DNA of 64,000 bases from contig JASGGT010000001.1 of the NCBI GenBank assembly GCA_047602655.1, positions 5,453 to 69,452 on the forward strand. The letters are read 5' to 3'. The translations under genes and the position numbers were made by a program. The notes beneath the pieces are model-generated. The model made no database searches. It had not been told where the DNA came from and worked only from the letters and a program-made list of their open reading frames with translations. Shown here piece by piece: positions 20,083-52,687 of the stretch (position 1 is its first letter; every line of letters begins with the position of its first letter). The DNA comes from Desulfovibrio sp. (GTDB taxonomy: Bacteria; Desulfobacterota; Desulfovibrionia; Desulfovibrionales; Desulfovibrionaceae).

Positions 20083-21165
20083 TCAGGCCAGTTTTTTACG
20101 CGCGGTGCCTTCGGTGTAGAACGGCGCTTCAACCCGCGCGGCGGGCAGTTCCGTTCTGGCGGCGCGAACAACAAAATTCTCGGCTCCGGCATGCGCGGCC
20201 TTGACCCAGGCAAAGGCGATCACATAGCCCAGCGAGGGCGCAAACGAACCACTGGTCACATGGCCCACTTCCGTGCCGTCAGTAAGGGCTACCACATCAC
20301 CGTGGCGGGCGGCGCGGCGACCATCAATGCGCAGGGGCACCAGCACTTCGGCGATCTTCTGCGCGCCTTCGCGGCCCACATAGTCGGCGGTGCTGGTCAT
20401 CATGCGGCCCATACCGGCCTCGGCGGGGCTGTGATTCTCGTCCAGATCGTGCCCATACAGGGGCAGGCCAGCCTCAAGACGCAGGGTATCGCGCGCGCCA
20501 AGGCCTATGGGCTTGACGCGTTCGTCAGCCAGCAGGGCGCTCCAGAAAGCCTCGGTCACGGAGCTCTCAATGTACAGTTCGTAGCCCAGCTCGCCAGTAT
20601 AGCCGGTGCGGCTCACCAGCAGGGGCGTGCCCTGCCAGGTGGTTTCACGGAAACCAAAGTAGCCGAGGTCGTGGAAATTCTGGCCCAGCAGCTTTTCGAG
20701 CACGTCCAGGGATTCCGGTCCCTGAAGGTCGATCTTGCCTGTTTCTGCGGAAATGTCGGTCATTTTGACGCTCTGGGGCAGACGGGCGCGCAGCACAGCG
20801 AAGTCGTTGGCGGCGCAGGCGGCGTTGACCACGGCCATGAAGGAATCAGGGCCGAAACGGTAGATGATTCCATCGTCCAGCACGCCGCCCTTTTCGTTGA
20901 GCAAAAAACCATAGCGGCACTTGCCGGGGGCAAGGGTCTGAAGGTTGTGGCTCACGGCCTTGCTCAAGGCTTCGTCCGCGCCGGGGCCTTCAATAAGAAA
21001 CTCGCCCATGTGGCAGATGTCAAAAAGGCCTGCATGCTGGCGGGTGTGCTGATGCTCTACAATAATACCCTCATACTGGATGGGCATGAGCCACCCGGCG
21101 AAGGGGGCCATTTTTGCGCCATGCGCCTCGTGCCAGGCAGTGAGGGGGGTACGCAGATCCGACAT
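20083..21165 (-). CDS. gcvT: aminomethyltransferase (glycine cleavage T protein)
   Basis: 360 aa, TPLTAWHEAHGAKMAPFAGWLMPIQY, typical GcvT. AAGGAG RBS. Confidence 0.9.
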   Translation of the reverse strand: MSDLRTPLTAWHEAHGAKMAPFAGWLMPIQYEGIIVEHQHTRQHAGLFDICHMGEFLIEGPGADEALSKAVSHNLQTLAPGKCRYGFLLNEKGGVLDDGIIYRFGPDSFMAVVNAACAANDFAVLRARLPQSVKMTDISAETGKIDLQGPESLDVLEKLLGQNFHDLGYFGFRETTWQGTPLLVSRTGYTGELGYELYIESSVTEAFWSALLADERVKPIGLGARDTLRLEAGLPLYGHDLDENHSPAEAGMGRMMTSTADYVGREGAQKIAEVLVPLRIDGRRAARHGDVVALTDGTEVGHVTSGSFAPSLGYVIAFAWVKAAHAGAENFVVRAARTELPAARVEAPFYTEGTARKKLA

Positions 21166-21414: not shown

Positions 21415-22248
21415 TTATTCCTGCGCTGGCAGGCCGAAAAACCGGCGGGCATTGTCGCCGCAGGTGCGCCAGAGGTCTTCGGGATTTTCTCCCCGCGCTT
21501 CGGCCATGGCTCGCACGGTAAACACCGTATAGCACGGCTCGTTGCGCTTGCCCCGCCACGGCAGGGGCGCAAGATAGGGGGCGTCGGTTTCCAGCAGCAG
21601 ACGGTCGGCGGGGATAAGGGCCACGGCCTCGCGCAGGGCCACATTGGCCTTGTAGGTGACGGGGCCGGGAATGGATATGTGCCAGCCGTTGCGCAGAATG
21701 CGCCGCGCAATTTCCGGCCCCTGACCAAAGCAGTGCCACAAGAGCGGATACCCGGCAAAGCCCTCGGCCTCCAGCGTCATGAGCGTTTCTTCCTCTGCCT
21801 CGCGGCAGTGAATGACCACCGGACGTTCCACGGCACGGGCCAGAGCAAGCTGATCTCGCAGGGCCTGATACTGGATTTCCCTCGGGCAGTCAGGCCAGTA
21901 AAAATCCAGCCCTATTTCGCCCACGGCCTTGAGCCGGGTGTCAGCGACAAAAGCGGCGCGCATGGCGGCAAGGCGCTCCTGCGTGCACTTCTGCCCATCG
22001 CAGGGGTGTATGCCCAGAAGAAAAAAGACTTCGGGGTGGGCGTCAAAATAAGCACGGCGGGAGTGATACTCTTCCGGCCCCAGAAAAACATTGCCCACCT
22101 GAGCAATACCTGACGCGCGAGCGCGTTCAAGCACGGCATCGCGATCCGCATCAAATTCCTGACCATCAAGGTGCGCGTGGCTGTCCACCCCGGCAAGGGG
22201 CAGGGCCAGAGTCAGGGGATCAATGCGAACGGCTGATTTTTTCGACAT
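21415..22248 (-). CDS. TatD-family metal-dependent hydrolase
   Basis: GVDSHAHLD...EIGLDFYW...VIHCREA...ETDAPYL are TatD metal-ligand motifs. Confidence 0.85.
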   Translation of the reverse strand: MSKKSAVRIDPLTLALPLAGVDSHAHLDGQEFDADRDAVLERARASGIAQVGNVFLGPEEYHSRRAYFDAHPEVFFLLGIHPCDGQKCTQERLAAMRAAFVADTRLKAVGEIGLDFYWPDCPREIQYQALRDQLALARAVERPVVIHCREAEEETLMTLEAEGFAGYPLLWHCFGQGPEIARRILRNGWHISIPGPVTYKANVALREAVALIPADRLLLETDAPYLAPLPWRGKRNEPCYTVFTVRAMAEARGENPEDLWRTCGDNARRFFGLPAQE

Positions 22249-22377
22249 GGTTTACCTCGCGGCCGATACATAGCAACGGGCGCAGGCGAAAGGCAAGGGG
22301 CCAGTCACCGGCAGCAGACATCCCTGCGGGCAGCCGCCATTGCAAAGCCCGGACAATGGGGCTATGCTTTGGAGGAT

Positions 22378-22405
22378 TTGCCAGTTTTTACTGGTTTCCT
22401 ATACT
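22378..22405 (+). promoter_or_regulatory. possible sigma70-type promoter
   Basis: TTGCCA (22378-22383), 16 nt, TATACT (22400-22405). It is very close to the ATG at 22421, so the leader would be very short. Confidence 0.3.
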
Positions 22406-22420
22406 TTTTTTGGGGGAATC

Positions 22421-23377
22421 ATGCATCTCCGCAAACGCATTCTTGTCACCGGCGGTTCCGGCTTTTTGGGTTCGCACCTGTGCGAACGCCTGCTCAACGA
22501 AGGGCACGAAGTGCTCTGCGTGGACAATTTCTTTTCCAGCGCCCGCGCCAACGTGGAAGCGCTCATGGATAACCGCAGGTTTGAGCTTATCCGCCACGAC
22601 GTGACCTTTCCCCTCTATGTAGAGGTGGATGAAATTTACAATCTGGCCTGCCCGGCCTCGCCCATCCATTATCAGCACGACCCGGTGCAGACCATCAAGA
22701 CCTGCGTTCACGGCGCGATCAACATGCTGGGCCTGGCCAAAAGGCTTGGCGCGCGCATTTATCAGGCATCCACCAGTGAAGTGTACGGCGACCCCGAGAT
22801 ACACCCGCAGCAGGAAAGCTACTGGGGGCATGTGAACCCCAACGGCATCCGCTCCTGCTACGATGAAGGCAAGCGCTGCGCCGAAGCCCTGTTCTTTGCC
22901 TACTGGCGTCAGGGCGGCCTGCCCATCAAGGTGGGACGCATCTTCAATACCTACGGGCCCAAGATGCACCCCAACGATGGCCGCGTGGTCTCCAACTTCA
23001 TCATCCAGGCGCTCAAGGGTGAACCCATCACCATTTACGGCGATGGCTCCCAGACCCGCTCCTTCTGCTATGTGGACGACCTTGTGGAATGCATGATCCG
23101 CTTCATGGCCTCGGCCGATGATTTTGTGGGCCCCATGAACATGGGCAACCCCGGCGAATTCACCATCCGCGAACTGGCCGAAAAGGTCGTGGAAATGACC
23201 GGCAGCAAGTCCGTGATTTCTTACGAACCCCTGCCCGGCGACGACCCCAAGCAGCGCAAGCCCGACATCACCCTGGCCCGCGAAAAGCTTGGCTGGGAAC
23301 CCAAGGTAGCCCTTGCGGAAGGCCTGGTAAAAACCATCGCCTACTTTGAAAAGCAGCTGAAAGACGGCCTGGCGTAG
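22421..23377 (+). CDS. UDP-glucuronate decarboxylase (UXS-type NAD-dependent SDR)
   Basis: [14 protein letters not shown] Rossmann motif, YDEGKR catalytic motif, strong UXS-like sequence throughout. Confidence 0.85.
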
Positions 23378-23391
23378 GTATTCCGGCAGTC

Positions 23392-25452
23392 ATGTTCCTT
23401 TTTATCACGGCCATCGGCATATTGGCGGCAACAGCCGTGCTGTGCGCACTTTTGGCCGTGCGCCCGCCCTCAAAGGCAACCGGACGCGCGGCCAATGCGG
23501 CTGGCGTTATCGGGGCCTTTGCGGGCTGTTTTGCTGGTTTGTGCGCCCTTGCTTCCGGCCCATGGGCCGGGCAGGAGAGCCTGCGTCTGCCTCTGGCCTT
23601 GCCCGTGGGTTCCTGCGCCCTGGGCATGGATGCCCTGAGCCGCCTGTTTTTGCTGCCAGTGTTTGGTCTGGGTTTTGTTTGCGCCGCCTCGGGTGGCATT
23701 GCCCTGCGGCATGAAGAACCGGAGCGCCACAATCTTGCGGCGCACTGGTTCTTTTTTCATATGCTGCTGATCGGCCTTGCCCTGGTGATGACCGCGCGCG
23801 ATGCCGTGCTGTTCATGCTGGCCTGGGAAATCATGTCGCTGGCGCCCTTCTTTCTTATTGATTTCAATGACGGCGACAGCAAGGTACGCGACGCCTCATG
23901 GGTATACCTTGTGGCTGCGCATCTGGGCGCTGTGGCCCTGATGGCCTTCTTTACCCTGCTGTGGCAGGTCACGGGCAACACTTCGCTGGATGCCCTCCAG
24001 GGCGGAGCTGTGCTCGCGAGGGTACTCGAACAGGCGCAGGGCTATTATGGCCCCGGCCTGCTCACGGTGCTGTTTGTGCTGGCTCTTGTCGGTTTTGGAG
24101 CCAAAGCGGGGCTTGCGCCCCTGCACGTATGGCTGCCCGAGGCGCACCCTGCCGCGCCAAGCCATGTTTCGGCCCTGCTCTCCGGGGCCATGATCAATGC
24201 TGGATTTTACGGCATGATCCGTAGCGTGGGCATGCTGGCACCTGCGGGCGCGGCACCTGAATGGTGGGGTTGGGCGCTGCTGTTGCTGGGGCTCGCCACC
24301 GGCCTCATGGGAATTTTGAAAGCCACGGCCCAAAGCAACCTCAAAAGGTTGCTCGCCTATTCCAGCGTGGAAAACATGGGCCTGATGGTCATGGGTCTGG
24401 GTGCCGGGCTTATCGGCCAGAGCTGCGGCAATGCGTGGATTGCTGTACTGGGCTTTTCCGGCGCGCTGCTGCACATGCTCAACCACTCTGCATTCAAGGG
24501 GCTGCTGTTCCTGTGCGCAGGCGAAGTGCTGCACGCCACAGGGACCATACGCATGCAGCATCTGGGCGGTCTGCAAAAACGTCTGCCTCTGCTTGGCGCG
24601 GCCTTTGCCATAGGTGCAGCGGCCATTGCCTGCCTGCCGCCTTTTAACGGATTTGCGGGCGAGCTTGTGCTGGGCCTTTCCCTGCTGGACGGCCCCGCGC
24701 TTTTTGGCGTGGAGCGTCAGGTGGGGCTGCTGCTCGCCCTGGCGGGCCTTGCCTGCATCAGCGGCCTTGCGGCGGCCCTGTACGCCAAAGCCTACGGCAT
24801 CGCCTTTCTGGGTGAGCCGCGCTCCGGCTTTGCCGCCAACGTGCGCCCACTTTCGTGGCGCACGCTCTGGCCCCTGGCCCTGCCCGCCGCCGCATGCCTG
24901 GCGGGCGGTCTGGCCGCGCCTCGGGTTTTCGAGCTGGCCGCCGGGGCCGCCCAAAGCGCCCTGCCCTTGCCGCAGGCGCTTCAGCAGGCCGGTCTGGCCG
25001 GCCTGACCCAGGCGCATGCGAGCCTTGCCGCAGTGGCAAAAATCGGCGGCGCTGGCCTTGGGCTGGCCTTGCTGATCCTTTTTGTTCGCCGCTGCCTGCT
25101 TAAAAAACGCGCTGTGGAATCCATGCCCACCTGGGGCTGCGGCTTTCAGGGCGGATCTGCCCGCATTCAATACACGGACGCGGCCTTCTCAGAACCCACG
25201 GCAAAGATATTTGCTCCTGTCATGGGCCTCAAGACACGCCTGCAACTGGATGATGGGCTGTTTCCCAAGGGCGGACAACTGAGCGTCACCGCGCCCGACC
25301 GCCTGCGCAGCGGCCTGTTCACCCCCCTGTTTGCAGCGGTGGAAAGCCTGTGCAATGCCTGCAAGGTTATTCAGCACGGCAAAATCCACCTGTATATTTT
25401 GTACATTCTCGCCACGCTGGTGGCGCTGCTCGTGTGGGGGCTGCACTCATGA
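23392..25452 (+). CDS. HyfB/NuoL-like antiporter-type membrane subunit (EhrA-like)
   Basis: 686 aa, with proton-conducting-membrane-transporter motifs (FGAKAGLAPLHVWLPEAHPAAPSHVSALLSGAMIN; LAYSSVENMG). Confidence 0.85.
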   Translation: MFLFITAIGILAATAVLCALLAVRPPSKATGRAANAAGVIGAFAGCFAGLCALASGPWAGQESLRLPLALPVGSCALGMDALSRLFLLPVFGLGFVCAASGGIALRHEEPERHNLAAHWFFFHMLLIGLALVMTARDAVLFMLAWEIMSLAPFFLIDFNDGDSKVRDASWVYLVAAHLGAVALMAFFTLLWQVTGNTSLDALQGGAVLARVLEQAQGYYGPGLLTVLFVLALVGFGAKAGLAPLHVWLPEAHPAAPSHVSALLSGAMINAGFYGMIRSVGMLAPAGAAPEWWGWALLLLGLATGLMGILKATAQSNLKRLLAYSSVENMGLMVMGLGAGLIGQSCGNAWIAVLGFSGALLHMLNHSAFKGLLFLCAGEVLHATGTIRMQHLGGLQKRLPLLGAAFAIGAAAIACLPPFNGFAGELVLGLSLLDGPALFGVERQVGLLLALAGLACISGLAAALYAKAYGIAFLGEPRSGFAANVRPLSWRTLWPLALPAAACLAGGLAAPRVFELAAGAAQSALPLPQALQQAGLAGLTQAHASLAAVAKIGGAGLGLALLILFVRRCLLKKRAVESMPTWGCGFQGGSARIQYTDAAFSEPTAKIFAPVMGLKTRLQLDDGLFPKGGQLSVTAPDRLRSGLFTPLFAAVESLCNACKVIQHGKIHLYILYILATLVALLVWGLHS

Positions 25453-26396
25453 AAGCCGAGCTTGCGGTCTATCTTACGCAGTTTGCCCTGTCCCTGATTC
25501 TGGCCCCCCTGCTGCCCGGCATCATCAACCGGGTCAAGGCCAAATTTGCCGGACGCCACGGCAAGCCAGTGCTGCAAACCTACTATGATATCGCCAAACT
25601 GCTGCGCAAGGGCGAGGTGATCAGCCGCACATCCACATGGATATTTGCCGCCGCCCCCTCCATATCCCTGGCAGGCGCAATCTGCGCTCTGGCCCTGCTG
25701 CCCCTCGGCGGTGCGGTTTCGCCATTGGCGTTTGCGGGCGACTTTGTGCTGGCCGCCTATCTGCTGGGCATGGGGCGCTTTGCCGTCATGCTTGGCGCAC
25801 TGGATACTGGCTCGGCATTTGAAGGCATGGGCGCAAGCCGCGAGGCCACATTCTCCGCCCTTGCGGAACCCGTATTTTTTCTGGCGCTCATGGTGCTCAC
25901 AAGTCTGTGCCTCGGCCTTGGGCACGGCACAGATACTGCCTTCAGCCTCTCCACCATGTTTGGCGGGCAGACCGCCGGGGCATGGCTGACAGGCAAGGGC
26001 GAGCTGCTGCTTCTGCCCGTGATCTTTTTTGTGCTGCTGCTGGTGGAAAACTGCCGCATCCCGGTGGACGACCCCAATACGCACCTTGAACTGACCATGA
26101 TCCATGAAGTCATGGTGCTTGACCATTCCGGCCCCAATCTGGCCCTGATACTTTACGGCGCCGCCCTCAAACTGTGGTTTTTCGCCGCGCTGATCGCGGG
26201 CCTGATCACCCCTGCGCTGCCCCTGTGGGAGCAACTGGGCATACGCCTTGGCATTGTGCTGCTGCTGGCCGTGGTTGTGGGCATTGTGGAATCCATCATG
26301 GCCCGCCTGCGCATGGAGCGCGTACCCTACCTGCTCGGCGCAGCAGCGGGCATGGGCATGCTCACGCTTATTCTGACCCAGGCGAGGTTGCCATGA
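25449..26396 (+). CDS. HyfC/HycD/NuoH-like membrane subunit (EhrB-like)
   Basis: 315 aa. The ATG overlaps the upstream stop (ATGA). INRVKAKFAGRHGKPVLQTYYDIAKLLRKGE is typical of the HycD/NuoH family. Confidence 0.85.
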   Translation: MKAELAVYLTQFALSLILAPLLPGIINRVKAKFAGRHGKPVLQTYYDIAKLLRKGEVISRTSTWIFAAAPSISLAGAICALALLPLGGAVSPLAFAGDFVLAAYLLGMGRFAVMLGALDTGSAFEGMGASREATFSALAEPVFFLALMVLTSLCLGLGHGTDTAFSLSTMFGGQTAGAWLTGKGELLLLPVIFFVLLLVENCRIPVDDPNTHLELTMIHEVMVLDHSGPNLALILYGAALKLWFFAALIAGLITPALPLWEQLGIRLGIVLLLAVVVGIVESIMARLRMERVPYLLGAAAGMGMLTLILTQARLP

Positions 26397-27016
26397 CCAC
26401 GCTTTTGCAGTCCTGCCTTTTCCTTCTGGTATTGAGCAATTTTCTGCTGCTCGGAACGCGCCGCGTTGCGGGCATGACGCGGTTGACCGCCTTTCAGGGC
26501 GTATTGCTGGCAGCCCTGCTGCTGAGCCTTGACCATGCCCTGCTGGCCGGTGCCGTATTGCTGATCAAGGGCGCACTATTGCCCGGTCTTTTGTGGCGCA
26601 CCCAAAAACGGCTGCCCGCCGACGCCCTGATCTGCCCCGCCCGCCGCGTGGGCTTTGGCGTACTTGCAGGCATGGCCGGTCTGGTATTTTCCATCTGGCT
26701 GGACGGCAAGCTGGTCATGCCGCTGGGTCTTTACCCGCCCTTGCTGCTGCCCACCGGGCTGGCAACGCTGTTTTGCGGATTTATCCTCATTGTAGGGCGC
26801 ATCAAGGCCATCACCCAGGTCATCGGCTATCTGGTGGCGGAAAACGGCATCTTTCTGCTGGGCGTACCGCTCATGACAGGCGGCACGGTGTGGTTTGAAC
26901 TGGCCCTCCTGCTGGACGTTTTTGTGGCCGTGTTTGTTATGGGCATAGCCATCAACCATATCAGCGATTCCTTCGCCTCCATTGACGTGGCGCGGTTCCG
27001 CAGCCTCAGGGATTAG
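26393..27016 (+). CDS. HyfE/NuoK-like small membrane subunit (EhrC-like)
   Basis: 207 aa with about 6 TM helices. ATGA overlap with the upstream gene. The track ORF start at 26174 lies inside the preceding gene. Confidence 0.75.
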   Translation: MTTLLQSCLFLLVLSNFLLLGTRRVAGMTRLTAFQGVLLAALLLSLDHALLAGAVLLIKGALLPGLLWRTQKRLPADALICPARRVGFGVLAGMAGLVFSIWLDGKLVMPLGLYPPLLLPTGLATLFCGFILIVGRIKAITQVIGYLVAENGIFLLGVPLMTGGTVWFELALLLDVFVAVFVMGIAINHISDSFASIDVARFRSLRD

Positions 27017-27025
27017 GACGAGCGC

Positions 27026-28522
27026 ATGCTGACAGCACTTCTTTTCATACCCCTGTGTTCAGGCTGCATCATGCTGCTCTGGGGCCGCGCCGTCGTCTGC
27101 CGCCTCGGCCTGCCGCTCACGGCACTGGCGCACACGACCCTTGCCGCCGCAATTGCCGTCAGGGTCGCGCGCGGAGAAGCCCCCTCGGAGCTTGGCGGCC
27201 TGCTGGCCCCGGACGCTCTGGGCGTGCTGTTTCTGATGCTGGCCAGCCTGCTGTTTCTTGCCGCATCGTTCTATGCCGTGCATTACCTGCGGGAAGAAGA
27301 ACGCATCGGCGAGCACACCAATATTCTGGATCACGGGCGCTTCACCAATGCGCCGGAGCGCCGCTTCACGGCCTGCCTATGCTTTTTTCTCGGGGCCATG
27401 ACACTTGTGACCATCACGCCGCACATGGGCGCGCAGTGGGTGGGCATTGAGGCTACCACGCTTTCCAGCGCCCAGCTCATTTATTTTCACCGTCACAAGA
27501 GCTCACTGGAAGCCACCTGGAAGTACCTGATCATATGCTCCGTGGGCATTGCCCTGGCCCTTCTGGGCAACATACTGCTTTCCGTGTCGTTCCACGGTGC
27601 GGAAGGGGCCAATGGAGCAGCTGACGGCATGGATCAGGTGGGCTGGTTTGTGCGCAACGCGGCACTTGCCGAACCCACGTGGCTCAAGGCGGCCTTTGTT
27701 TTTCTGCTGGTGGGCTACGGCACCAAGATGGGCCTTGCCCCTCTGCACAACTGGCTGCCCGATGCGCACAGTCAGGCCCCTTCGCTGGTTTCGGCCCTGC
27801 TTTCGGGCGCGCTGCTCAACTGCGCCATGCTGGGCATGCTGCGCGGGCACCAGATCATGCTGGCTGCGGGGCTTGGCGGGCTTTCAGGCGGCATGATCAT
27901 GTTTTTCGGTATTCTTTCGCTCATGACAGCCGCCATCTTTATTGTGGGGCAAGGCCACTACAAGCGCATGCTGGCATATTCCAGCGTTGAACACATGGGC
28001 ATTCTGGCTCTGGGCATTGGCGTGGGCGGCGTGGCTGTGCCCGGCGCAATGCTGCATGCGGTCTGCCATTCGCTCACCAAGTGCATGCTCTTTCTGCTTT
28101 CGGGCAACATTCTTGCCCGCTATCACACCTATTCCAGCTACGACGTGCACGGCATGCGCTGGACCATGCCCGCCACCGCGGCCCTGTGGACAGCCGGATT
28201 TCTGGCTGTGGCCGGATCGCCGCCCTTTGGGCTTTTTGTCAGTGAACTACTCATCTTCAAAGGGATGCTGGCAGCAGACCTGCCCTGGCTTTCCGCCGGA
28301 TATCTGGTGCTTCTGGCCATAATATTTGTGGGGCTTTCCGTGTCGGTGCTGCGCATGGTGCAGGGCAACCGCCCTGTGGATCTGCCGCCTGCAAGCTCCG
28401 AGCCTGTGCTGAGCGTCCTGCCGCCTCTGGTGCTGGGGCTGGCCGTGCTGACTCTGGGCCTGTGGATTCCTGACTGGCTGTGGAATTTTCTTAACCGCGC
28501 CGCTGCGCTCATAGGCGCGTAA
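27026..28522 (+). CDS. HyfF/NuoN/NuoM-like antiporter-type membrane subunit (EhrD-like)
   Basis: 498 aa, GTKMGLAPLHNWLPDAHSQAPSLVSALLSGALLN and LAYSSVEHMG. Confidence 0.85.
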   Translation: MLTALLFIPLCSGCIMLLWGRAVVCRLGLPLTALAHTTLAAAIAVRVARGEAPSELGGLLAPDALGVLFLMLASLLFLAASFYAVHYLREEERIGEHTNILDHGRFTNAPERRFTACLCFFLGAMTLVTITPHMGAQWVGIEATTLSSAQLIYFHRHKSSLEATWKYLIICSVGIALALLGNILLSVSFHGAEGANGAADGMDQVGWFVRNAALAEPTWLKAAFVFLLVGYGTKMGLAPLHNWLPDAHSQAPSLVSALLSGALLNCAMLGMLRGHQIMLAAGLGGLSGGMIMFFGILSLMTAAIFIVGQGHYKRMLAYSSVEHMGILALGIGVGGVAVPGAMLHAVCHSLTKCMLFLLSGNILARYHTYSSYDVHGMRWTMPATAALWTAGFLAVAGSPPFGLFVSELLIFKGMLAADLPWLSAGYLVLLAIIFVGLSVSVLRMVQGNRPVDLPPASSEPVLSVLPPLVLGLAVLTLGLWIPDWLWNFLNRAAALIGA

Positions 28523-28535
28523 GCGCCAAAGGCCG

Positions 28536-30131
28536 ATGCCAGACCCCGCTCCGGGTTCAGCACCGCCAACGGTGAGAGGGCCGATGTTATTCGATTACCG
28601 CGATACCGTGCCGCTGTCGGGCATGCCCCCGGTTTCCGTTGAAGAACTGGGAGATTTTCTGCGCCGCTACATTGCCGAAGGCTGGCGTCTGCTGGCACTG
28701 TTCGGCCTGCCGGAATCTTCGGACGAAAACGCACCTGCGGGGTTGTGCTGCGTGCTGGCTCAGGACAGTTCGCACTATCTTGCCACCATGCGCACCGCTC
28801 CCTTGCAGTCCTATGCTTCCATGACGCCCTCCACGCCTCAGGCCCATCTGTTTGAACGCGAAATATTTGAGCAATGGGGCATCCGGCCCGAAGGGCATCC
28901 CTGGCTCAAACCTGTGCGACGCATCCCGGACGCCGCCGAAGCCAATGCCAGAACTCAGGCCGAAGGCGGCTCGCTTGCCGCAGCGCCCGGACAGGCTGCT
29001 CAGCCTTTTCCCTTCTACAGGGTTGAAGGCGAAGAAATCCATGAAGTTGCCGTTGGCCCAGTGCATGCCGGGGTTATTGAGCCGGGGCATTTCCGCTTTC
29101 AGTGCCACGGCGAAAACGTGCTGAACCTTGAGATTGCTCTGGGCTATCAACATCGTGGGCTTGAGCGCATGCTTGTGCGCGGCCCGCTTGCCCGTTGCCT
29201 GCCCCTGCTGGAATGCGCCGCTGGCGATACAACCATTGGGCACGCCACGGCCCATTGCGTAGTGGTCGAACGCCTGTCGGGCTGCGTGGTCGGCCCGCGC
29301 GCTCACCGCCTGCGGCGGGTGGGGCTTGAACTTGAACGCCTTGCCAACCATACGGGCGATCTTGGTGCCATTGCCGGGGATACGGGTTTTCTCCCCACTG
29401 CCTCGTGGAATGGCCGCATACGCGGTGATTTTCTCAATACCACGGCCTGCCTGTGCGGCAACCGTTTTGGCCGGGGGCTGCTGCGTCCCGGCGGCACGGC
29501 CTACGATCTTGACGCGGAAGGCTGCGCAGACATGCTTGCCCGCATCAAGGCGGCAGGACGAGACGTGCGGGGCGCGGTGGATGTGATGCTGCATACCGAG
29601 AGCGTACTTGAGCGCCTCACGGGTACGGGCTACGTCAGCAGGGAAACCGCCCAGAACCTCGGCCTGGTGGGCATGCCCGCACGGGCCTGCGGCCTCAAGG
29701 TCGACGCGCGTTTTCACTATCCCCTTGCCGACCTGCCCATCAGGGACTGCGCGCCGCGTGTTGAAACCACGGGCGACGTTCTGGCCCGCACCCTCGTGCG
29801 CAGCAAGGAGATTGACGATTCCCTGCGCCTGCTCGAGGCGGATCTTTCCACTCTCGCCAACCTGCCACCCCTTGCCGAGCAGCCCGACGCCGAGGCCCTT
29901 GGCAACATGCCGCCCGATACCCTTGCCGTATCGCAGGTTGAGGGCTGGCGCGGCGAAATCTGCCACGTGGCTGTTACCGGACCTGAGGGTAGATTTTTGA
30001 CCTACAAGGCCATCGATCCTTCGTTCCACAACTGGTCCGGCCTTGCCATGGCCCTGCGCGGCAACCAGATTTCCGACTTCCCGCTCTGCAACAAGAGTTT
30101 CAACCTCTCGTACTGCGGACACGATCTGTGA
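28536..30131 (+). CDS. NuoC-NuoD/HycE-like 'large subunit' lacking the [NiFe] cysteine ligands (EhrL-like)
   Basis: GPVHAGVIEPGHFRF and LGYQHRGLE are conserved. The N-terminal ligand motif reads LECAAGDTTIGH and the C-terminus reads KSFNLSYCGHDL. An alternative start is ATG 28584 after GAGAGGG. Confidence 0.85.
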   Translation: MPDPAPGSAPPTVRGPMLFDYRDTVPLSGMPPVSVEELGDFLRRYIAEGWRLLALFGLPESSDENAPAGLCCVLAQDSSHYLATMRTAPLQSYASMTPSTPQAHLFEREIFEQWGIRPEGHPWLKPVRRIPDAAEANARTQAEGGSLAAAPGQAAQPFPFYRVEGEEIHEVAVGPVHAGVIEPGHFRFQCHGENVLNLEIALGYQHRGLERMLVRGPLARCLPLLECAAGDTTIGHATAHCVVVERLSGCVVGPRAHRLRRVGLELERLANHTGDLGAIAGDTGFLPTASWNGRIRGDFLNTTACLCGNRFGRGLLRPGGTAYDLDAEGCADMLARIKAAGRDVRGAVDVMLHTESVLERLTGTGYVSRETAQNLGLVGMPARACGLKVDARFHYPLADLPIRDCAPRVETTGDVLARTLVRSKEIDDSLRLLEADLSTLANLPPLAEQPDAEALGNMPPDTLAVSQVEGWRGEICHVAVTGPEGRFLTYKAIDPSFHNWSGLAMALRGNQISDFPLCNKSFNLSYCGHDL

Positions 30132-30140
30132 GGCTTTGAC

Positions 30141-30896
30141 ATGCTGCGTATTATCAAGGAACGCCTGCACCAGAAATACCGCACGCTGGATTATCCCAAA
30201 CTTCAGCCCTCGCTCTCGCCCAGATATCTGGGCAGGCCAGAGCTTGCGCAGGTTTCCTGCGGATCATGCCGCGCCTGCTACGCGGCCTGCCCTGCTGGAG
30301 CCCTGCTGCCCACCGCTGGCGCGCAAGACGGCACCCCCACGCTGGACATGGGGCGCTGCACCTTTTGCGGCGCATGCCGTGCCGCCTGCCCCAAGGGAGC
30401 CTTTATCTTTACCGGGCAGCACCGCATGGCGTCCTTTACCCGCGAGGGCCTGCTGGTGATCCCCGGTCAGTCTTTCGCAGAGCAGCCCACGCCGTCCCGC
30501 TTTTCCCTGTTCCGCCGCTCGCTCAAGCTGCGGCAGGTCAGCGCCGCAGGCTGCAACGCCTGCGAGGCCGACAGCAATGTGCTCACCACACTGGTGTTTG
30601 ACCTGGGCCGCTTTGGCATTGATTTTGTTGCCTCGCCCCGCCATGCCGACGGCATTGCCGTAACCGGCCCGGTTTCGGAAAACATGCGGCTGGCCCTGCT
30701 TGATACCTTCAAGGCGACTCCCCAGCCGCGCATTGTAATTGCCGTGGGTGCCTGCGCCATTTCCGGCGGGCTGTTCCGCGAGAGTGATCAGTGCAACCGT
30801 GGCGTGAGTGAACTGCTGCCCGTGGACCTGTATATTCCCGGCTGCCCGCCCAACCCGTGGACAATCCTTGACGGTTTGACCTCGCTGCAAAAATGA
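30141..30896 (+). CDS. fused 2x[4Fe-4S] ferredoxin (HycF/NuoI-like) + NuoB/HycG-like small subunit (EhrS-like)
   Basis: CGSCRACYAACP and CTFCGACRAACP, followed by GCNACE...GACAISGG...PGCPPNP. Confidence 0.85.
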   Translation: MLRIIKERLHQKYRTLDYPKLQPSLSPRYLGRPELAQVSCGSCRACYAACPAGALLPTAGAQDGTPTLDMGRCTFCGACRAACPKGAFIFTGQHRMASFTREGLLVIPGQSFAEQPTPSRFSLFRRSLKLRQVSAAGCNACEADSNVLTTLVFDLGRFGIDFVASPRHADGIAVTGPVSENMRLALLDTFKATPQPRIVIAVGACAISGGLFRESDQCNRGVSELLPVDLYIPGCPPNPWTILDGLTSLQK

Positions 30897-31106
30897 CGCC
30901 CCCCAAGCCTCCGGATTTGCTGATTTCAACCCCTCCACCATACTTTTTCGGGCACACCGCTGGGAGCAAAAAACCGCTCCCCCTGCCGCGTTTTACCCAG
31001 ACTTGCCTTAATCTGTATAATGATTATAGTAGATAAGGCTCGTACAGAAAGTACTACCCGGTCAAATCGCCACTTCAGGAGATGACCAACACCGCCCTTA
31101 TGGGAG

Positions 31107-32027
31107 ATGTTCATGCAAATAAAAGCTTTTTTGACGATTCTTGTACTGCTTTGCTGTTCGCTCATGTTCACCTTGTCTGATGACGCACTTGCAGCTCGTC
31201 TTGGCGGCGGCAGTTCTTTTGGCAGCAAGCCCTTTATGAGCACGCCTGCGCCCCGTCCCCAGACCACGTTCCAGAACAAGCCCAGCGCCGCGCAGCCTCA
31301 GGCGCAGGCGGCTCCAGCCGCGCGTCCTGGTGGCATGTTCGGCGGCATGGGCGGCCTCATGGGCGGCCTGCTTGCCGGTACGCTCATAGGTTCGCTCTTG
31401 GGCGGTCATGGTTTTGCTGGCGGCGGCTTTATGGATATCCTGCTCATCGGACTGATGGTTTTCCTCGGCCTCAAGCTTTTTGCGGCCTTTCGCGGTTCGC
31501 AGAGGCCAGCGCAAGCATCCGCAGGTGCGCAAGGAGCGCAGGCCGAGCAGCCCCAGCCGGGCATGATGCGTAACGACAGTGCGAGTAATGGATGGGATGC
31601 CCTGCGTGGTCAGGGCGGCGCTGGCGAGGCTGAAGCCCCCGGCCCGCAGATTCCCATGCCTCCCGGTTTTGATGCCGATGAATTTCTGCGCGGGGCCAAA
31701 ATGGCCTACACCCGTTTGCAGACTGCCTGGGACAAGCGCGACATGAACGACATCTCGCAGTTCACCACCGAAGCCGTGCAGAAATCGGTGCGCGAACAGA
31801 TGGAAGCCGACCCCAAGCCGAGCACCACAGAAATCCTGCTGGTCAATGCCCAGCTGCTCGGTGTGACCGATGAAGGTCAGGAGCAGTATGCCCAGGTGTT
31901 CTTTGACGTGCTCCTGCGTGAAAGCCCTGACCAGCAGACTCCGTCCTCCGCACGCGAAGTGTGGCACTTCATGCGGCCCGTGACGGGCGGCAACTGGAAG
32001 CTGGACGGCATCCAGCAGGTAGATTAA
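31107..32027 (+). CDS. Tim44-like domain protein with an N-terminal signal/anchor
   Basis: Hydrophobic N-terminus, a G/M-rich segment and a TM helix. C-terminal part FDADEFLRGAKMAYTRLQTAWDKRDMNDI...WKLDGIQQ. A TATAAT box sits at 31016-31021. Confidence 0.7.
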   Translation: MFMQIKAFLTILVLLCCSLMFTLSDDALAARLGGGSSFGSKPFMSTPAPRPQTTFQNKPSAAQPQAQAAPAARPGGMFGGMGGLMGGLLAGTLIGSLLGGHGFAGGGFMDILLIGLMVFLGLKLFAAFRGSQRPAQASAGAQGAQAEQPQPGMMRNDSASNGWDALRGQGGAGEAEAPGPQIPMPPGFDADEFLRGAKMAYTRLQTAWDKRDMNDISQFTTEAVQKSVREQMEADPKPSTTEILLVNAQLLGVTDEGQEQYAQVFFDVLLRESPDQQTPSSAREVWHFMRPVTGGNWKLDGIQQVD

Positions 32028-32986: not shown

Positions 32987-33033
32987 ATCTGCTCCAGAAG
33001 CTTGCGCACAATATGCAAAAATATCTCAGACCG

Positions 33034-34246
33034 CTACGATGCAGCCCCGGAAGCGGGCCGCTCGTCCAGGGCTTCGGCCAGCGGCAGGCTGAGGCAGAAT
33101 TCCGCCCCTCCATCGGCCGCATTGGCTGCTGTCAGCTCCCCGCCACGGGCGTGAGCCAGGGAGCGGGCCACCGCAAGCCCCAGCCCCACGTAGCGGCCAA
33201 GCGTCTTGCCGCCGGACGCATGCGCGGCAACCGGGCTTTGCAGCGCGCGCGTGCAAAAAAGGCTCAAATATGTGCGGCATGATGTCGGGCGCGATGCCTG
33301 GGCCGTTGTCGCGCACCACAAGGTCGTACCAATCCTGCCCTTGCGCATCGCGTCTGGTGCTGGCGGTCAGGGTAATCAGACCGCCGGGGCGCTCTGCCGA
33401 TCCTGATGCAGGCTCCGTATCACTGAGGGCATCCAGCGCGTTTTCCAGCAGGTGCAGGCATATCTGCTGCAGTTCCGGGGCGGACCCCAAGGGGCGGGGC
33501 GCGCCCTCGCCCTGCGGCACCGCGATATCGCAGCGCACGTGGGAGCTTTCCATGCGCTCGTGCAGCAGGCGCAGCACCTGGGCCACATCCGCAGCCACAT
33601 CAAGCGCGCCCACGCGCGGGTCAAGCCCGTGCCCCACCATGAGCAGCTTGCGCGTTATCTCGCGCACTCGCAGGCTCTGCGTCCTGATGGTGTCCACAGC
33701 TTCCCGCACTTCGCCGATATCCGGCAAGGCTTCGGCTTCCGGCACTTCCAGACAGTCACGGATCAGACCAGCGGCCTGCACCATGATATTCAGCGGATTA
33801 TTGACCTCATGGGCCACGCCTTCCGCCACCCGGCCAAGGCTGCGCCAGCGGGCGGCCTCTGCCAGACGGGCGGCTTCGTGCCGTGCGCCTGCTCGCTCCG
33901 CCGCCTTGCGGCATTCTGCAAGGATGCCGTCCATGCCCACGGGCTTTGAAAGCCAGTTCAGCGCGCCGCGCCGCATGGCCTGCACGGCCTTGCTCATGTC
34001 CCCTGCGCCGGAAAGCATCACCACATCGGTCTGCGGGTAGTGCTCGCGCAGAATTTTCAGCAGGTCAACGCCGTCCATACCCGGCAGCCCCACATCAAGA
34101 AATATGAGGTCGCGGGGGCCGCGCGCCAGTTCGGCCAGGGCCGTATCGGCATCCTGCGCGGTTGCGGTTTCGTAGCCGCGCAATGCCAGACGTTCGGCCA
34201 GAGGCTCCGAAAAGGCAGGTTCGTCATCCACAACAAGCACACGCAT
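33034..34246 (-). pseudogene. hybrid REC + HisKA + HATPase histidine kinase interrupted by a frameshift at a homopolymer
   Basis: The 406-aa frame carries REC (VLVVDDEP...FLDVGLPGMDG), an H-box (AHEVNNPLN) and DNGPGI...IFEPF. The G2 box and C-terminus (GRYVGLGLAVARSLAHARGGEL...) continue in the +1 frame (track ORF 33034..33348). The switch is at the A6 run at 33255-33260. Confidence 0.7.
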
Positions 34247-34470
34247 GGCGAACTCCTATGGCGAACCGCTGCCGCCCAGGCAGTTTCATAAAACCGCCCC
34301 AGGGCAATTAACGCATGGCCCAGCCGCCTTGCGGCGGGCAAGACCAGCCAACGCCAGTTCTATGGCAGGGTTTGGGGGTAAACCCCGGCAAGAGCGTTTC
34401 GTGCAGAAACCCCCTTGCCACAGGCCGGATGCGCTCCATCCGGCCCTCCCGGCCAAAGTTGCACCAGCAC

Positions 34471-34944
34471 TTATTTACCGTGCTCTTCCAGGACGTCCTT
34501 TTCGTTCAGAACATCGCGTGCCGAATCAAAGTCCCCGCCTTCGGCCAGAGAAACAGCAACCATGGCGTTCTCAAGCTTGTCGCGGTAGGCCATGCGAATG
34601 CTGTTGAGCAATTCGTCAATGTCCATGGGCTTTCTGAGGAAGTTGTACGCGCCCATGCGATAGGCGGTCTGTTCTTCAGCATCGCCGCCGTGGCCTGTAA
34701 GAATGATGACCTGAACCTGCGGATTGCTCTTTTTGACATTGCGCAGCACTTCAAAGCCGTCCATGCCGGGCATGCGCAGGTCAAGCACGATAACGTCGGT
34801 GGGCTGCTCCACAGCCTTGAGGGCCTCGGGGCCGTCATAGGCCACCCGCGCTTCAAAGCCGCGCATGGCAAGGCGCTCCGACAGCGTGTCCACAAACTGC
34901 TTTTCGTCGTCCACCAGCAGGATTTTGATGTCTTCCTTGGTCAT
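34471..34944 (-). CDS. single-domain response regulator (REC + short tail)
   Basis: ILLVDDEKQF...VLDLRMPGMDG...ILTGHG...LRKP. No output domain. Confidence 0.85.
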   Translation of the reverse strand: MTKEDIKILLVDDEKQFVDTLSERLAMRGFEARVAYDGPEALKAVEQPTDVIVLDLRMPGMDGFEVLRNVKKSNPQVQVIILTGHGGDAEEQTAYRMGAYNFLRKPMDIDELLNSIRMAYRDKLENAMVAVSLAEGGDFDSARDVLNEKDVLEEHGK

Positions 34945-34983
34945 GGAATACTCCTTGAAGGCCCGGCAACATGCCGGCGCCGG

Positions 34984-35649
34984 TTATTCGCCTTCGCTAT
35001 CGCAGGCCGAAATGGAAAGGAAAAATCTTGGCCCCGCATCCCGCCAGGGCATAAGCACGGCGCGCCAACCGGGGCGCATGCCGTCCAGCATGGGGCTGCC
35101 CGTCATGGCCGCCAGGGCCATCTCGCGGTTGGCCCCTTCCAGTGCCTCTACAATAATGCCTTCTTCCTTCTGCCGCCGTCCGGCAGTGAGGCGCAGGTTC
35201 ACCTGCCCGCCCACCGAGGCGCAGAGGTCAAACACTTCAAGCAGCGACCGCAGCACAGCCAAGGGCGGCACATTGGCCCACACTGGCTCATCAGTTTCGC
35301 CGCTGGTCAGTTGTATCTGCGCCGCGCGCGCCTGACGTGCCGCCAGCAGGCAGAAACTGCGGCTTACCCGCGCAAGGTCGCAGGGCCCTGCGTTGCCGGG
35401 CTCCATGCCTCCAGCCTGCGCCATGAAATCCATGGCTTCAGAAAGGGCCGCCCCCTGAATGATGGAACGCTGCACTTCGCTCAATGCCGATGAAAGCCGC
35501 TCTGCGCCCGGCGCGGCGACAGTTTTGCCGCCAGCCAGCGTTGCCAGATCCTGCGCCAGCCCGGCAGATTCACGAATCACGGCCAGCACGTTGCGCATGT
35601 CGTGAACTGCGGAAGCCAGCAAGCGGGCCATGCACTGACTCTCATTCAT
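34984..35649 (-). CDS. DHp-containing histidine phosphotransfer / degenerate kinase-like protein
   Basis: 221 aa with H-box-like ASAVHDMRNVLAVI. The C-terminal half has no recognisable N, G1 or G2 ATP-binding boxes. The ATG overlaps the upstream REC gene stop (ATGA). Confidence 0.55.
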   Translation of the reverse strand: MNESQCMARLLASAVHDMRNVLAVIRESAGLAQDLATLAGGKTVAAPGAERLSSALSEVQRSIIQGAALSEAMDFMAQAGGMEPGNAGPCDLARVSRSFCLLAARQARAAQIQLTSGETDEPVWANVPPLAVLRSLLEVFDLCASVGGQVNLRLTAGRRQKEEGIIVEALEGANREMALAAMTGSPMLDGMRPGWRAVLMPWRDAGPRFFLSISACDSEGE

Positions 35650-36041
35650 GACTTGCCTCCGTTGGCTGCGCATTCCTTGCCTTCACGCACGGCAGCTTGC
35701 AGCGTTTCCAGAAAAACGTTGAAACTCAGCGGCTTGGTGAGGCAGGCAAAGGCCTGCGCCACAGGATTTGTGCCATTATCGTCCACAGCCTCGTGCCCAG
35801 TGAGCAGGATAACCGGCAAATCGGGGTACAAAACCTTGAGGCGGCGCAGCACTTCATCGCCCGACAAACCGGGCATGAAGAGATCAAGCACCACAACATC
35901 AGGTTTTTCCGGCGTGGCGGCCTGGAGGGCGCTGATGCCGTCATAAACCACATAGGGCGCAAATCCGCGAAGCGAAAGACGCTCTGCAAGGGTATCGACA
36001 AATTCCTTTTCATCGTCAGCCAGAAGGATGCGTAATGACAT
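35646..36041 (-). CDS. single-domain response regulator (REC only)
   Basis: ILLADDEKEF...VLDLFMPGLSG...LLTGH...LTKP. The ATG at 36041 is 1 nt after the HK stop. Confidence 0.85.
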   Translation of the reverse strand: MSLRILLADDEKEFVDTLAERLSLRGFAPYVVYDGISALQAATPEKPDVVVLDLFMPGLSGDEVLRRLKVLYPDLPVILLTGHEAVDDNGTNPVAQAFACLTKPLSFNVFLETLQAAVREGKECAANGGKS

Positions 36042-36042
36042 T

Positions 36043-37803
36043 CTACACCTCCACCGCGACATCTGGCGGAGTAAGCGGCAGGGTGATGCTTATGGTGCTG
36101 CCCCGCCCTTCTTCGCTTTGCACGTGAATTTCGCCGCCAAGCTTGCGCACGATGCCGTAGGTGATGAACATGCCGAGCCCGGTTCCCTTGTCTTTTTTGG
36201 TGGAGTAAAACGGCTCAAAAATATGCCGGAGCACTTCGGGCGACATGCCCTTGCCGTTGTCCTGCACACTCACCAGCATCTGTCCGTTCTGGCTTTGACA
36301 GCGTATTTTAACAAAACGCTCTTCGCCCTGCGGGGTCTGCGTGCTCCCTTCGCCACCGGCCAGCGCGTCCAGCGCATTACCCACGATATTGAGGAACACC
36401 TGCTGCAACTGCCCCCTGTCCGACACAATTTCCGGCAGGTTGGGCGGCAGCTCCGCTTCAAGTTTGACGCCCCGGTTCTTGGCTTCGCGCTCAAGAAAAC
36501 CAAGGGTTTCTGAAATAACTTCTTCTATGTGCAGGGCCTGACGGTTGGCTTCCATGCGGCGGGCAAAGCCCAGCAATCTGTGGGTAATGCCGCGCGCGCG
36601 TTCCACTGTGCTTTCAATGCCTTCCAGCAGTGCGCAGAGCCTTTCCTTGTCCTTGCCATCGCCGCACACCTTGCCCATGCTCAGAAGATCCTGGGCAAGC
36701 CCCGCCTTTTCGTAAATGACGGCCAGCGGATTATTGACCTCATGGGCCACACCAGCAGCCAGCCGACCGATGGACGAAAGCTTCTGGTTGTGCTCCATCT
36801 GGGCAAAAACAGCGACCCGGCGTTCATCGCTGGCCTGCAACCGGTTGATAAGCTGCTGCATGAGCAGATTCGACACCATAAATATCAGGGCAATGCCGCC
36901 GCACAAGACCAGCAGCAATTCCGTACGCAGGGCCAGCCAGGGACGGATGGCGTCTTCCGTGGGCTTGACGGCCATCAGCATGAAATCCGTGCCCGCCAGT
37001 GTGCACGAGGCCACCATGAGCTGCCTGCCCTTGGGGTCTGTGATGCGGCGCACCACTGTTTCGTGCGAGGCAGGGGGCAGATCCATGGGCAGTTTTTCGA
37101 GCGCTTTGCCGAAAAGGTTGGAATCCGTTTGCAGCACGCCTTCCGTGTCCACAAGAAACACGTCAGTATCATGCTCCGGCCCGACGGTGGACACAACCTG
37201 CTGGATGCGCAGGGTATCTGTGGCCACGCGCAACGTCCACGAGACTCCGTTTTCTTCAAGCCTGTGCACTGCCACAACAAGGTGCGGATACCCGCGATAC
37301 CCCAGAATCGCGTTGCTGAGGTAGCGTCCCTTTATCTCGGTATCGCGCAGCCAGGGCTTGCCCGCGTAATCCACGCCCTTGAGCTTGTAAGGCCCCACAT
37401 AGCCAACTTGCTGGCCGTCCGCGTCCACCAGGCCCATATCCACAAAGCCCTGATATTCGCTCTTGAGGGCCAGAAACACTCGGTTGAGAGTTCGCTCGTC
37501 CAGCAAATCCTTGAAAGTGTAAGCGTGGGCCAGAAAACTCACCGTGGAAACACGCTCGCCAAGGTACAGTTCCAGCGCCGCCTGCGACTTGCGGGCCAGG
37601 GCGTACACCGGGCTTTCCAGTTCGCGCTCAAGGGTACGCATGTACTGCACATGGCTGATGGCCGAGAGCAGCAGCAGCGGCGTAACCGAAACGGCCACCA
37701 TGAGCACTGTCATCAGCCGCCGCAACGAGCGGTACCGAGCCGGAGACACTGCCTCCGGAACTTCCAGCAGATGCGCGAGATAGTTTTTTATCTTGGCAAA
37801 CAT
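36043..37803 (-). CDS. sensor histidine kinase with a periplasmic Cache-type domain
   Basis: Two TM helices bracket a periplasmic region of about 270 aa. H-box AAGVAHEVNNPLAVI, N-box FLNIVGNALDA, G-boxes DNGKGM and GTGLGM. Start set at ATG 37803 after GGAGGG. Confidence 0.85.
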   Translation of the reverse strand: MFAKIKNYLAHLLEVPEAVSPARYRSLRRLMTVLMVAVSVTPLLLLSAISHVQYMRTLERELESPVYALARKSQAALELYLGERVSTVSFLAHAYTFKDLLDERTLNRVFLALKSEYQGFVDMGLVDADGQQVGYVGPYKLKGVDYAGKPWLRDTEIKGRYLSNAILGYRGYPHLVVAVHRLEENGVSWTLRVATDTLRIQQVVSTVGPEHDTDVFLVDTEGVLQTDSNLFGKALEKLPMDLPPASHETVVRRITDPKGRQLMVASCTLAGTDFMLMAVKPTEDAIRPWLALRTELLLVLCGGIALIFMVSNLLMQQLINRLQASDERRVAVFAQMEHNQKLSSIGRLAAGVAHEVNNPLAVIYEKAGLAQDLLSMGKVCGDGKDKERLCALLEGIESTVERARGITHRLLGFARRMEANRQALHIEEVISETLGFLEREAKNRGVKLEAELPPNLPEIVSDRGQLQQVFLNIVGNALDALAGGEGSTQTPQGEERFVKIRCQSQNGQMLVSVQDNGKGMSPEVLRHIFEPFYSTKKDKGTGLGMFITYGIVRKLGGEIHVQSEEGRGSTISITLPLTPPDVAVEV

Positions 37804-52628: not shown

Positions 52629-52687
52629 GAGAATGCCGCCAGAGTTTTGCCCGCCGGTCACACGCGGGCCGCAAAAAAGGAATGCCC

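Follow-up and report, generated by a model that had tools for sequence, protein, structure and literature searches.

What kind of enzyme is built around a hydrogenase-type large subunit when the cysteines that should hold its nickel-iron centre appear to be missing? The question is raised by one gene in a 64,000-nucleotide stretch of Desulfovibrio sp. DNA (contig JASGGT010000001.1), referred to here as the window. It was addressed through the identity of the protein (EhrL), the state of its former metal site, the operon that encodes it, and the published systems to which it can be compared. All coordinates are given in Table 1.

The ORF occupies exactly 28536-30131 and encodes 531 aa. Pfam resolved the product as a NuoC/NuoD fusion: an N-terminal, NuoC-like domain (PF00329, Complex1_30kDa) followed by a C-terminal domain of the NuoD/hydrogenase large-subunit type (PF00346, Complex1_49kDa). 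All NCBIfam equivalog scores fell under the cut-offs. The best-matching solved structures in phmmer searches were HycE of E. coli (7z0s_E, 6e-43), MbhL (6cfw_L, 2e-33) and Nqo4 of Thermus (2e-25). An AlphaFold2 monomer model (54 sequences) reached a pLDDT of 83.4 and a pTM of 0.85 and confirmed the fold. Confidence was low at 147-184 and over the final ~20 positions, the parts that build the interface and the pocket (the pocket from 158-184 and the C-terminal end). Foldseek searches with this model returned HycE first (7z0s_E, E 3.9e-24, TM 0.74), followed by fused NuoCD chains. The assignment of a sequence-only reading, which had called the protein a HycE/NuoD-like subunit, was borne out by the domain fusion and by HycE as the closest solved relative. 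Translation may start at the ATG at 28584 in place of 28536, since homologues are 515 aa long and the better Shine-Dalgarno match is found at 28584.

Table 1. Position of the six subunit genes and of the elements of EhrL discussed in the text (window coordinates)
Feature	Position	Strand	Description	Basis or remark
EhrA	23392..25452	+	HyfB/NuoL-like antiporter-type membrane subunit, 686 aa	Pfam Proton_antipo_M 4.9e-51
EhrB	25449..26396	+	NuoH/HyfC-like membrane subunit (likely start)	Pfam NADHdh 1.7e-29 on ORF 25350-26396
EhrC	26393..27016	+	HyfE-like small membrane subunit (likely start)	NCBIfam 'hydrogenase 4 membrane subunit' 1.6e-10
EhrD	27026..28522	+	HyfF/NuoM-like antiporter-type membrane subunit, 498 aa	Pfam Proton_antipo_M 2.5e-45
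EhrL	28536..30131	+	fused NuoC/NuoD-type large subunit without [NiFe] cysteines	Pfam, phmmer, AlphaFold2, Foldseek
EhrL, beta1-beta2 loop	29055..29099	+	residues 174-188, GPVHAGVIEPGHFRF	alignment and conservation profile
EhrL, former L1 motif	29211..29243	+	residues 226-236, E-C-A-A-G-D-T-T-I-G-H	ligand positions A229, T232
EhrL, former L2 motif and C-terminus	30066..30128	+	residues 511-531, QISDFPLCNKSFNLSYCGHDL	ligand positions S525, G528; end at L531
EhrS	30141..30896	+	small subunit, 251 aa	Pfam Oxidored_q6 and Fer4 families; MbhJ/HycG alignments

In the phmmer alignment with 7z0s_E, the HycE motif R-V-C-G-I-C-G-F-A-H was paired with C227-A-A229-G-D231-T232-T-I-G-H236 of EhrL, and HycE D-P-C-Y with N523-L-S525-Y526. 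An all-against-library search also recovered seven relatives from the same family that bear the cysteines (ERxCGVCxxSH ... DFPLINKSFELCY[SA]CxDR, also written ERxCGVCxxSH ... NKSFELCY[SA]CxDR). These match EhrL column for column, gap-free through both motifs, and the fourth ligand position is therefore G528. Aligned with HycE and the Cys-bearing relatives, EhrL had no cysteine in any ligand column: A229, T232, S525 and G528 stand there, exactly the loss of all four ligands, and the replacement by Ala, Thr, Ser and Gly, that had been read from the sequence. Misalignment masking the cysteines was rejected, because the Cys-bearing relatives run gap-free through both motifs. C527, one residue ahead of the fourth ligand position, was rejected as a shifted ligand, at least as a general feature, with Cys in just 52/94 of the Cys-less representatives. 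EhrL thus has neither the L1 CGxC nor the L2 CxxC of the four-cysteine group-4 [NiFe] hydrogenases, and the absence of both CxxC motifs is a trait described for Ehr.

The scaffold around the site, which had been called intact, is indeed so: the beta1-beta2 loop is present, as is LGYQHRGLE at residues 202-210. Also as proposed, there is no C-terminal extension; EhrL stops at D530-L531, matching the end of mature HycE at its cleavage site. The Cys-bearing relatives have no extension either, so its absence predates the loss of the ligands and is not linked to it. Those relatives share the scaffold (GPxHAGIIEPGHFRF, DFPLxNKSF) and the extension-free C-terminus, which shows descent from a true hydrogenase. 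In a rough neighbour-joining tree without support values, the EhrL family stood apart from HycE and MbhL, with the Cys-bearing members basal and interleaved with basal Cys-less ones, and EhrL in the crown group.

Conservation of the replaced site was assessed in two sets: 121 close homologues (54-95% identity to EhrL) and 101 diverse full-length sequences, of which 94 were without the cysteines and 7 were Cys-bearing. E226, G230 and D231 were invariant in the close set, as were residues 513-522, 524-528 and 530-531 (the last 19 residues essentially so), and all 121 proteins stop at L531. Among the 94 diverse Cys-less representatives, position 229 was Ala in 49 and Ser in 34, position 230 Gly in 88, position 231 Asp in 91, and position 232 Thr in 46 and Ser in 38; towards the C-terminus, Ser was found at 525 in 91, Tyr at 526 in all 94, Gly at 528 in 93, Asp at 530 in all 94 and Leu at 531 in 86. 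D231, S525, Y526, G528 and D530 were thus 96-100% conserved. In 21-residue windows over the Cys-less family, the beta1-beta2 loop (173-193) scored highest (mean 0.84; whole-protein mean 0.44), and the C-terminal window (511-531) was among the top ones, averaging 0.82 over 79 diverse sequences without the cysteines.

Across the 121 close and 94 diverse sequences, the positions of both motifs were clearly not neutral, and strong purifying selection on the site argues against simple decay, in agreement with the first reading. The former metal site has been rebuilt as a conserved polar/acidic pocket, [A/S]229-G-D231-[T/S]232 plus S525-Y-x-G528-x-D530-L-COOH. Purifying selection acts on this pocket, on the beta1-beta2 loop, on the three Fe-S cluster sites of the small subunit and on the antiporter-like subunits. 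The proposal that polar residues were kept holds only for D231, T/S232 and S525, which combine conservation with restriction to this family; T233 and H529 are variable, and H236 is the ordinary histidine of CxxCxxxH. The interpretation as a whole is supported in part: the further suggestion of a different ligand or cofactor pocket goes beyond the results, none of which identifies a bound metal or cofactor. NuoD has an equally conserved remodelled pocket that binds a substrate (quinone) and no cofactor. Nothing here points to one specific new cofactor.

The EhrL gene is the fifth of six in a tightly packed operon (23392-30896), in which neighbouring genes lie 10-14 nt apart or overlap as ATGA; all six reading frames are intact, and their translation is coupled. 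EhrB likely starts at ATG 25449, overlapping the EhrA stop codon (ATGA), and EhrC likely at ATG 26393, overlapping the EhrB stop codon. EhrA matched NCBIfam hydrogenase 4 subunit B (2e-148, under its cut-off) and was syntenic in every locus holding that part. The NCBIfam match of EhrC covers residues 74-279 of ORF 26174-27016; no Pfam match was obtained for this protein. EhrD matched NCBIfam hydrogenase 4 subunit F (6.6e-102). In a gap-free alignment with residues 227-416 of E. coli NuoM, EhrD keeps K234 and E407 and has N265 in place of K265. K265 is the central TM8 lysine of NuoM, so the pumping competence of EhrD is not certain.

EhrS consists of an N-terminal 2x[4Fe-4S] ferredoxin domain (NuoI/HycF-like), carrying CGSCRACYAACP and CTFCGACRAACP (two CxxCxxCxxxCP motifs), fused to a NuoB/HycG-like domain with the proximal cluster. 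C138, C141, C204 and C234 are in register with MbhJ and HycG, the alignment by which EhrS has the proximal [4Fe-4S] cluster of a group-4 small subunit. With 12/12 Fe-S cysteines present, the statement that the small subunit keeps its FeS ligands proved correct. Counterparts of EhrS, as matches of ~720-750 nt, were found in nearly all loci reaching that far. The operon as a whole holds the subunit set described for Ehr (antiporter-like, NuoH-like, HyfE-like and Fe-S small subunit).

A scan of a genome collection found relatives in 470 species-level genomes, and 80 loci (80 species) were kept for synteny analysis. These came from Desulfovibrionaceae, Acidobacteriota, Planctomycetota, Verrucomicrobiota, Omnitrophota, Nitrospirota and others, and the six-gene order was the same wherever the contig permitted. 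The six genes travel together through many phyla as a self-contained cassette. The closest genome was that of Desulfovibrio desulfuricans (94% amino-acid identity); Nitrospiraceae/Nitrospirota genomes (loci L037 and L075) carry the same cassette at 51-55% identity, and a Variovorax plasmid carries the fused-small-subunit and Hyq cassette types side by side. That the complex is a decaying relic or a dead scaffold without redox role, its membrane arm serving for example as a plain Mrp-type cation/proton antiporter, is highly improbable: the loss of all four catalytic ligands and the kinship of the antiporter-like subunits with Mrp would fit, but strong conservation across ~35-95% overall identity is seen in the pocket residues, the beta1-beta2 loop and all 12 Fe-S cysteines, the ORFs are intact and coupled, and the relatives have been retained in so many genomes. 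The conservation data in particular speak against decay.

The operon is flanked by housekeeping genes. Upstream of it lie gcvT/H/PA/PB, tatD and, as the adjoining gene, a NAD-dependent epimerase; downstream are genes for a Tim44-like protein, a thioesterase and two-component proteins. HypD and HypE are encoded 22 kb downstream, unlinked to the operon. No hyp or formate dehydrogenase genes adjoined the cassette in the window flanks or in 58 loci, and no nif genes were found around the operon in the window flanks. No gene outside the cassette was conserved: clustering of 1358 flanking ORFs from the 58 loci gave generic response regulators, HTH regulators and antisense artefacts as the sole recurrent groups, with no formate dehydrogenase, hyp or quinone genes. 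In a promoter/terminator scan of 21900-31400, counts were not above those of shuffles.

On sequence and gene order, EhrL and its operon are a member of the known, widespread Ehr family and no new kind of system. The feature had been treated as a novelty, which it is not: the missing cysteines are the published defining trait of Ehr and HyqG (PMC3569383, PMC3357923, PMC10284858, PMC12342949). Ehr complexes have been defined as group-4-related, without the NiFe cysteines (PMC3569383, PMC6349859, PMC10284858), and described as 'close to group 4f ... lack the typical CxxC motifs' (PMC10284858). Ehr (energy-converting / Ech-hydrogenase-related) was first named in Geobacter, with EhrA-D, EhrL and EhrS; EhrA/C/L/S of Geobacter were listed and found to be more abundant on formate (PMC7894505). 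The family has since been reported in Nitrospira, Margulisbacteria, AOA, CPR and others (for Nitrospira/Nitrospirota: PMC10284858, PMC12342949), two Cys-less subtypes, ehr and hyq, have been named (PMC4758237), and one EhrL with all four Cys is mentioned, which fits the Cys-bearing relatives found here. The literature up to 2025 contains no established Ehr function.

The comparison with Ehr is close: a group-4-related large subunit (PF00346 + PF00329; HycE 6e-43, MbhL 2e-33, Foldseek TM 0.74 to HycE), both CxxC motifs absent, and the set of NuoL-like, NuoH-like, HyfE-like, NuoM/N-like, large and small subunits. Nothing essential differs, the Geobacter founder being compared by description; the cassettes at L037 and L075, from lineages with reported Ehr, lend indirect support to a grouping with Geobacter EhrL. 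The fusion of ferredoxin and NuoB domains in the small subunit is a feature that the Ehr papers cited here do not stress. Database names of ten representative clusters did not include the label 'Ehr' and were generic, e.g. 'NADH-quinone oxidoreductase subunit C' or 'Ni,Fe-hydrogenase III large subunit'.

The Hyq system of Azorhizobium caulinodans (hyqRBCEFGI) and other alphaproteobacterial diazotrophs, known as 'endo-hydrogenase', matches the present operon in its six structural genes and in their order (B-C-E-F-G-I), and HyqG is a Cys-less NuoC::D fusion. The HyqG orthologue of R. leguminosarum (operon at L081; 504 aa, like HyqG; 35% identity to EhrL) reads TSGDSTVAY ... DFPLCNKSFNCSYSGHDL (also given as TSGDSTVAY ... 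ADFPLCNKSFNCSYSGHDL) and so shares with EhrL the signature composed of [S]-G-D-[S] and NKSFNxSYxGHDL-COOH. The published Cys491 and Cys497 of HyqG (PMC3357923) map to PLC-NKSFN-C in this orthologue. Three differences were noted: HyqI is a NuoB homologue of 177 aa without further domains and holds a single cluster, whereas the 251-aa EhrS carries two extra [4Fe-4S] clusters; Hyq has an adjacent regulator, hyqR, and belongs with the nif regulon, neither of which occurs in the context of the present operon; and Hyq falls in the basal part of the rough family tree, whereas EhrL is in the crown.

Hyq also bears on whether the complex is still a hydrogenase, with a cysteine-free site that would couple H2 to quinone or ferredoxin through a metal with Asp, Glu, His, Ser or the C-terminal carboxylate as its ligands. 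Hyq of A. caulinodans is the one Cys-less relative studied by experiment; its hyqBCEFGI mutants lose H2 recycling, and H2 evolution has been ascribed to Hyq (PMC2650096, PMC3357923). The R. leguminosarum orthologue shares the signature, the conserved residues D231, E226, H236, S525, Y526 and D530 could serve as ligands or relay protons, and HypD and HypE are present in the window. However, the evidence for H2 in Hyq consists of genetics and in vivo gas measurements alone (PMC2650096, PMC3357923), its authors call the Ni,Fe site 'uncertain, if not unlikely' (PMC3357923), and a hydrogenase role for Ehr has been deemed unlikely, the Ehr genes of Nitrospira moscoviensis not being H2-induced (PMC12342949). 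The complex described here differs from Hyq by the ferredoxin-domain fusion; its hyp genes are distant and needed anyway for the ordinary hydrogenases of the organism, and none was linked to the cassette in the 58 loci. Moreover, no thiolate ligands are left in EhrL, and a Ni-Fe site without Cys ligation is not known. An H2-converting site is unlikely on this balance.

The Hyc/Hyf complexes (HycE/HycG/HycF, PDB 7Z0S) gave the best match to EhrL in both sequence and fold and share the NuoC/NuoD fusion, the EPGHFR loop and membrane partners of the HyfB/C/E/F type. HycE differs in that it retains the four Cys, has a C-terminal extension that is cleaved off and is wired to formate dehydrogenase via HycB; the present operon has no HycB/HyfA or FdhF partner, and its HycF- and HycG-like parts are fused. 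The MBH (6CFW) and MBS/Mbx (6U8Y) complexes of Pyrococcus are ferredoxin-driven, three-cluster, ion-translocating relatives. MbhL keeps its Cys ligands, unlike EhrL, and MBS, with its 13-14-subunit architecture, is far more distant from EhrL (5e-15, against 6e-43 for HycE). MBS is nonetheless a precedent for a hydrogenase-derived complex with a changed substrate.

NuoD/Nqo4 of complex I likewise descends from a hydrogenase large subunit, has lost the Ni-Fe cysteines and has turned the site into a substrate pocket; by alignment, the pocket of EhrL lies where hydrogenases would hold Ni-Fe and complex I would hold quinone. The complex could accordingly be a minimal complex-I-like ferredoxin:menaquinone oxidoreductase, with the remodelled pocket as quinone head-group site. 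The operon encodes counterparts of all three elements (NuoH, NuoB, NuoD) from which the quinone cavity of complex I is formed, and D282 of EhrL, the equivalent of Nqo4 Asp139, shows 90% conservation in the Cys-less family. The three-cluster input chain resembles the logic of ferredoxin-dependent NDH-1 and Fpo. Quinone coupling was proposed for Hyq by Sprecher et al. (PMC3357923). In the gap-free phmmer alignment, however, the quinone-binding Tyr87 and His38 of Nqo4 correspond to G230 (Gly in 94%) and I181 (Ile in 97% of the Cys-less family), and EhrL keeps a hydrogenase-type beta1-beta2 loop. The six-subunit complex also has no NuoEFG, equivalents of NuoA, NuoJ and NuoK are largely missing and its flanks are unrelated, whereas Nuo operons encode 11-14 subunits. 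Ehr occurs, besides, in lineages without recognisable quinone synthesis: Riflemargulisbacteria, reported to lack quinone biosynthesis (PMC6349859), and CPR bacteria (PMC7304191). Taken together, a quinone reductase of this kind is rather doubtful.

Probably, then, the protein is the EhrL of a six-subunit membrane complex of the Ehr type in a D. desulfuricans-like bacterium, with a remodelled pocket and ferredoxin-linked, ion-coupled electron transfer. The most likely function would be that of a ferredoxin-linked, ion-translocating oxidoreductase without a [NiFe] site. Judged from its conserved residues, the complex is intact and under selection, with a three-cluster wire, the remodelled pocket and a largely intact antiporter-type membrane arm. 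Electrons would enter from a soluble low-potential carrier, probably ferredoxin, via the ferredoxin-like domain of EhrS, and would pass through the proximal cluster to an acceptor in or beside the remodelled pocket, at the interface of the large, small and NuoH-like subunits. EhrA, EhrB and EhrD would couple this redox reaction to the translocation of H+ or Na+, and the whole process may be reversible. The leading candidate acceptor in this organism is, tentatively, menaquinone, an idea weakened by the missing Tyr87 and His38 equivalents and by the occurrence of Ehr in lineages reported to be without quinone synthesis.

The Asp/Ser/Tyr/Glu pocket, capped by an invariant free C-terminus, might also be a new catalytic or cofactor site, or a site for a new acceptor, which we consider improbable. 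If true, this could take two forms: a cysteine-free metal centre activating H2 or converting another small molecule, as the Hyq genetics would imply, or an acceptor site that would make Ehr a respiratory coupling enzyme of a type so far overlooked, common among anaerobes and nitrifiers.

The Ehr/Hyq complexes stand evolutionarily between hydrogenases and complex I and are widespread, and spotting the missing cysteines alone does not advance the question of their role. The present analysis adds a residue-level signature, two hot-spots of conservation and a contrast in the small subunit, fused in one type and plain in the other; it also places a typical Ehr member in a Desulfovibrio that can be cultivated and is accessible to genetics. 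Mutagenesis and structure determination can be aimed at D231, S525, Y526, G528, D530, the exact C-terminus, the beta1-beta2 loop and the small-subunit contrast with Hyq.

The small subunits encoded in the window, in the R. leguminosarum Hyq-type locus (L081) and in the Variovorax plasmid locus (L082) were compared, and two architectures were distinguished: a ferredoxin-NuoB fusion and a plain NuoB (see table). The rhizobial Hyq cassette carries the plain form, whereas EhrS of the window and its L082 counterpart are fusions. For a one-cluster complex of the plain NuoB type, there is no obvious wire for electron entry. On plasmid 3 of Variovorax sp. PBL-E5 (L082), two six-gene cassettes are separated by 3.4 kb. 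The first resembles that of the window and has the fusion-type small subunit; the second is annotated as hyfB / formate hydrogenlyase type.

The membrane subunit EhrD was aligned without gaps to residues 227-416 of E. coli NuoM, with K234 and E407 retained. NuoM, MbhH, NdhD and the MBS subunit all carry the central TM8 lysine, but in the window sequence the residue at this position of EhrD (265) is Asn.

The start of the large subunit EhrL is ambiguous (28536 or 28584 in the window). Its homologues are 515 aa long, and their N-terminus corresponds to the second Met (MLFDYRD). The sequence GAGAGGG stands ahead of this codon, compared with no more than a weak AAAGG ahead of the first ATG.

The HypD/HypE-like gene pair follows the Ehr operon at a distance of 22 kb; thus, the window contains [NiFe] maturation genes, unlinked to the cysteine-less complex.

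Coordinates of the features in the window and in the compared loci
Feature	Locus	Coordinates	Strand	Description
gcvT, gcvH, gcvPA, gcvPB	window	16378-21165	-	complete glycine cleavage gene set
Epimerase/dehydratase gene	window	22340-23377	+	NAD-dependent, sugar
EhrD	window	27026-28522	+	
Small subunit EhrS	window	30141-30896	+	2x[4Fe-4S] ferredoxin domain fused to NuoB, about 250 aa
Signalling cluster	window	33026-37887	-	hybrid response-regulator/HATPase protein, two stand-alone receiver proteins, dCache histidine kinase
LuxR-type response regulator	window	40313-40999	-	farther along, grouped with the signalling cluster
HypD + HypE-like AIR-synthase-family gene	window	52499-54783	+	HypD by PF01924, 2.3e-140
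Small subunit	L081	9411-9944		plain NuoB, 177 aa
Small subunit	L082	9449-10198		2x[4Fe-4S] ferredoxin domain fused to NuoB, about 250 aa
Cassettes	L082	2914-10198 and 13610-17437		paralogous pair

In other loci from Desulfovibrio, two-component genes again follow the cassette on its downstream side, a recurrence that probably reflects a generic domain match. Only 15 nt separate the end of the epimerase/dehydratase gene from EhrA, and the gene may be co-transcribed with the Ehr operon; this upstream position is kept only in the Desulfovibrio loci (L001-L012). The glycine cleavage set immediately precedes tatD and the Ehr operon on the upstream side.
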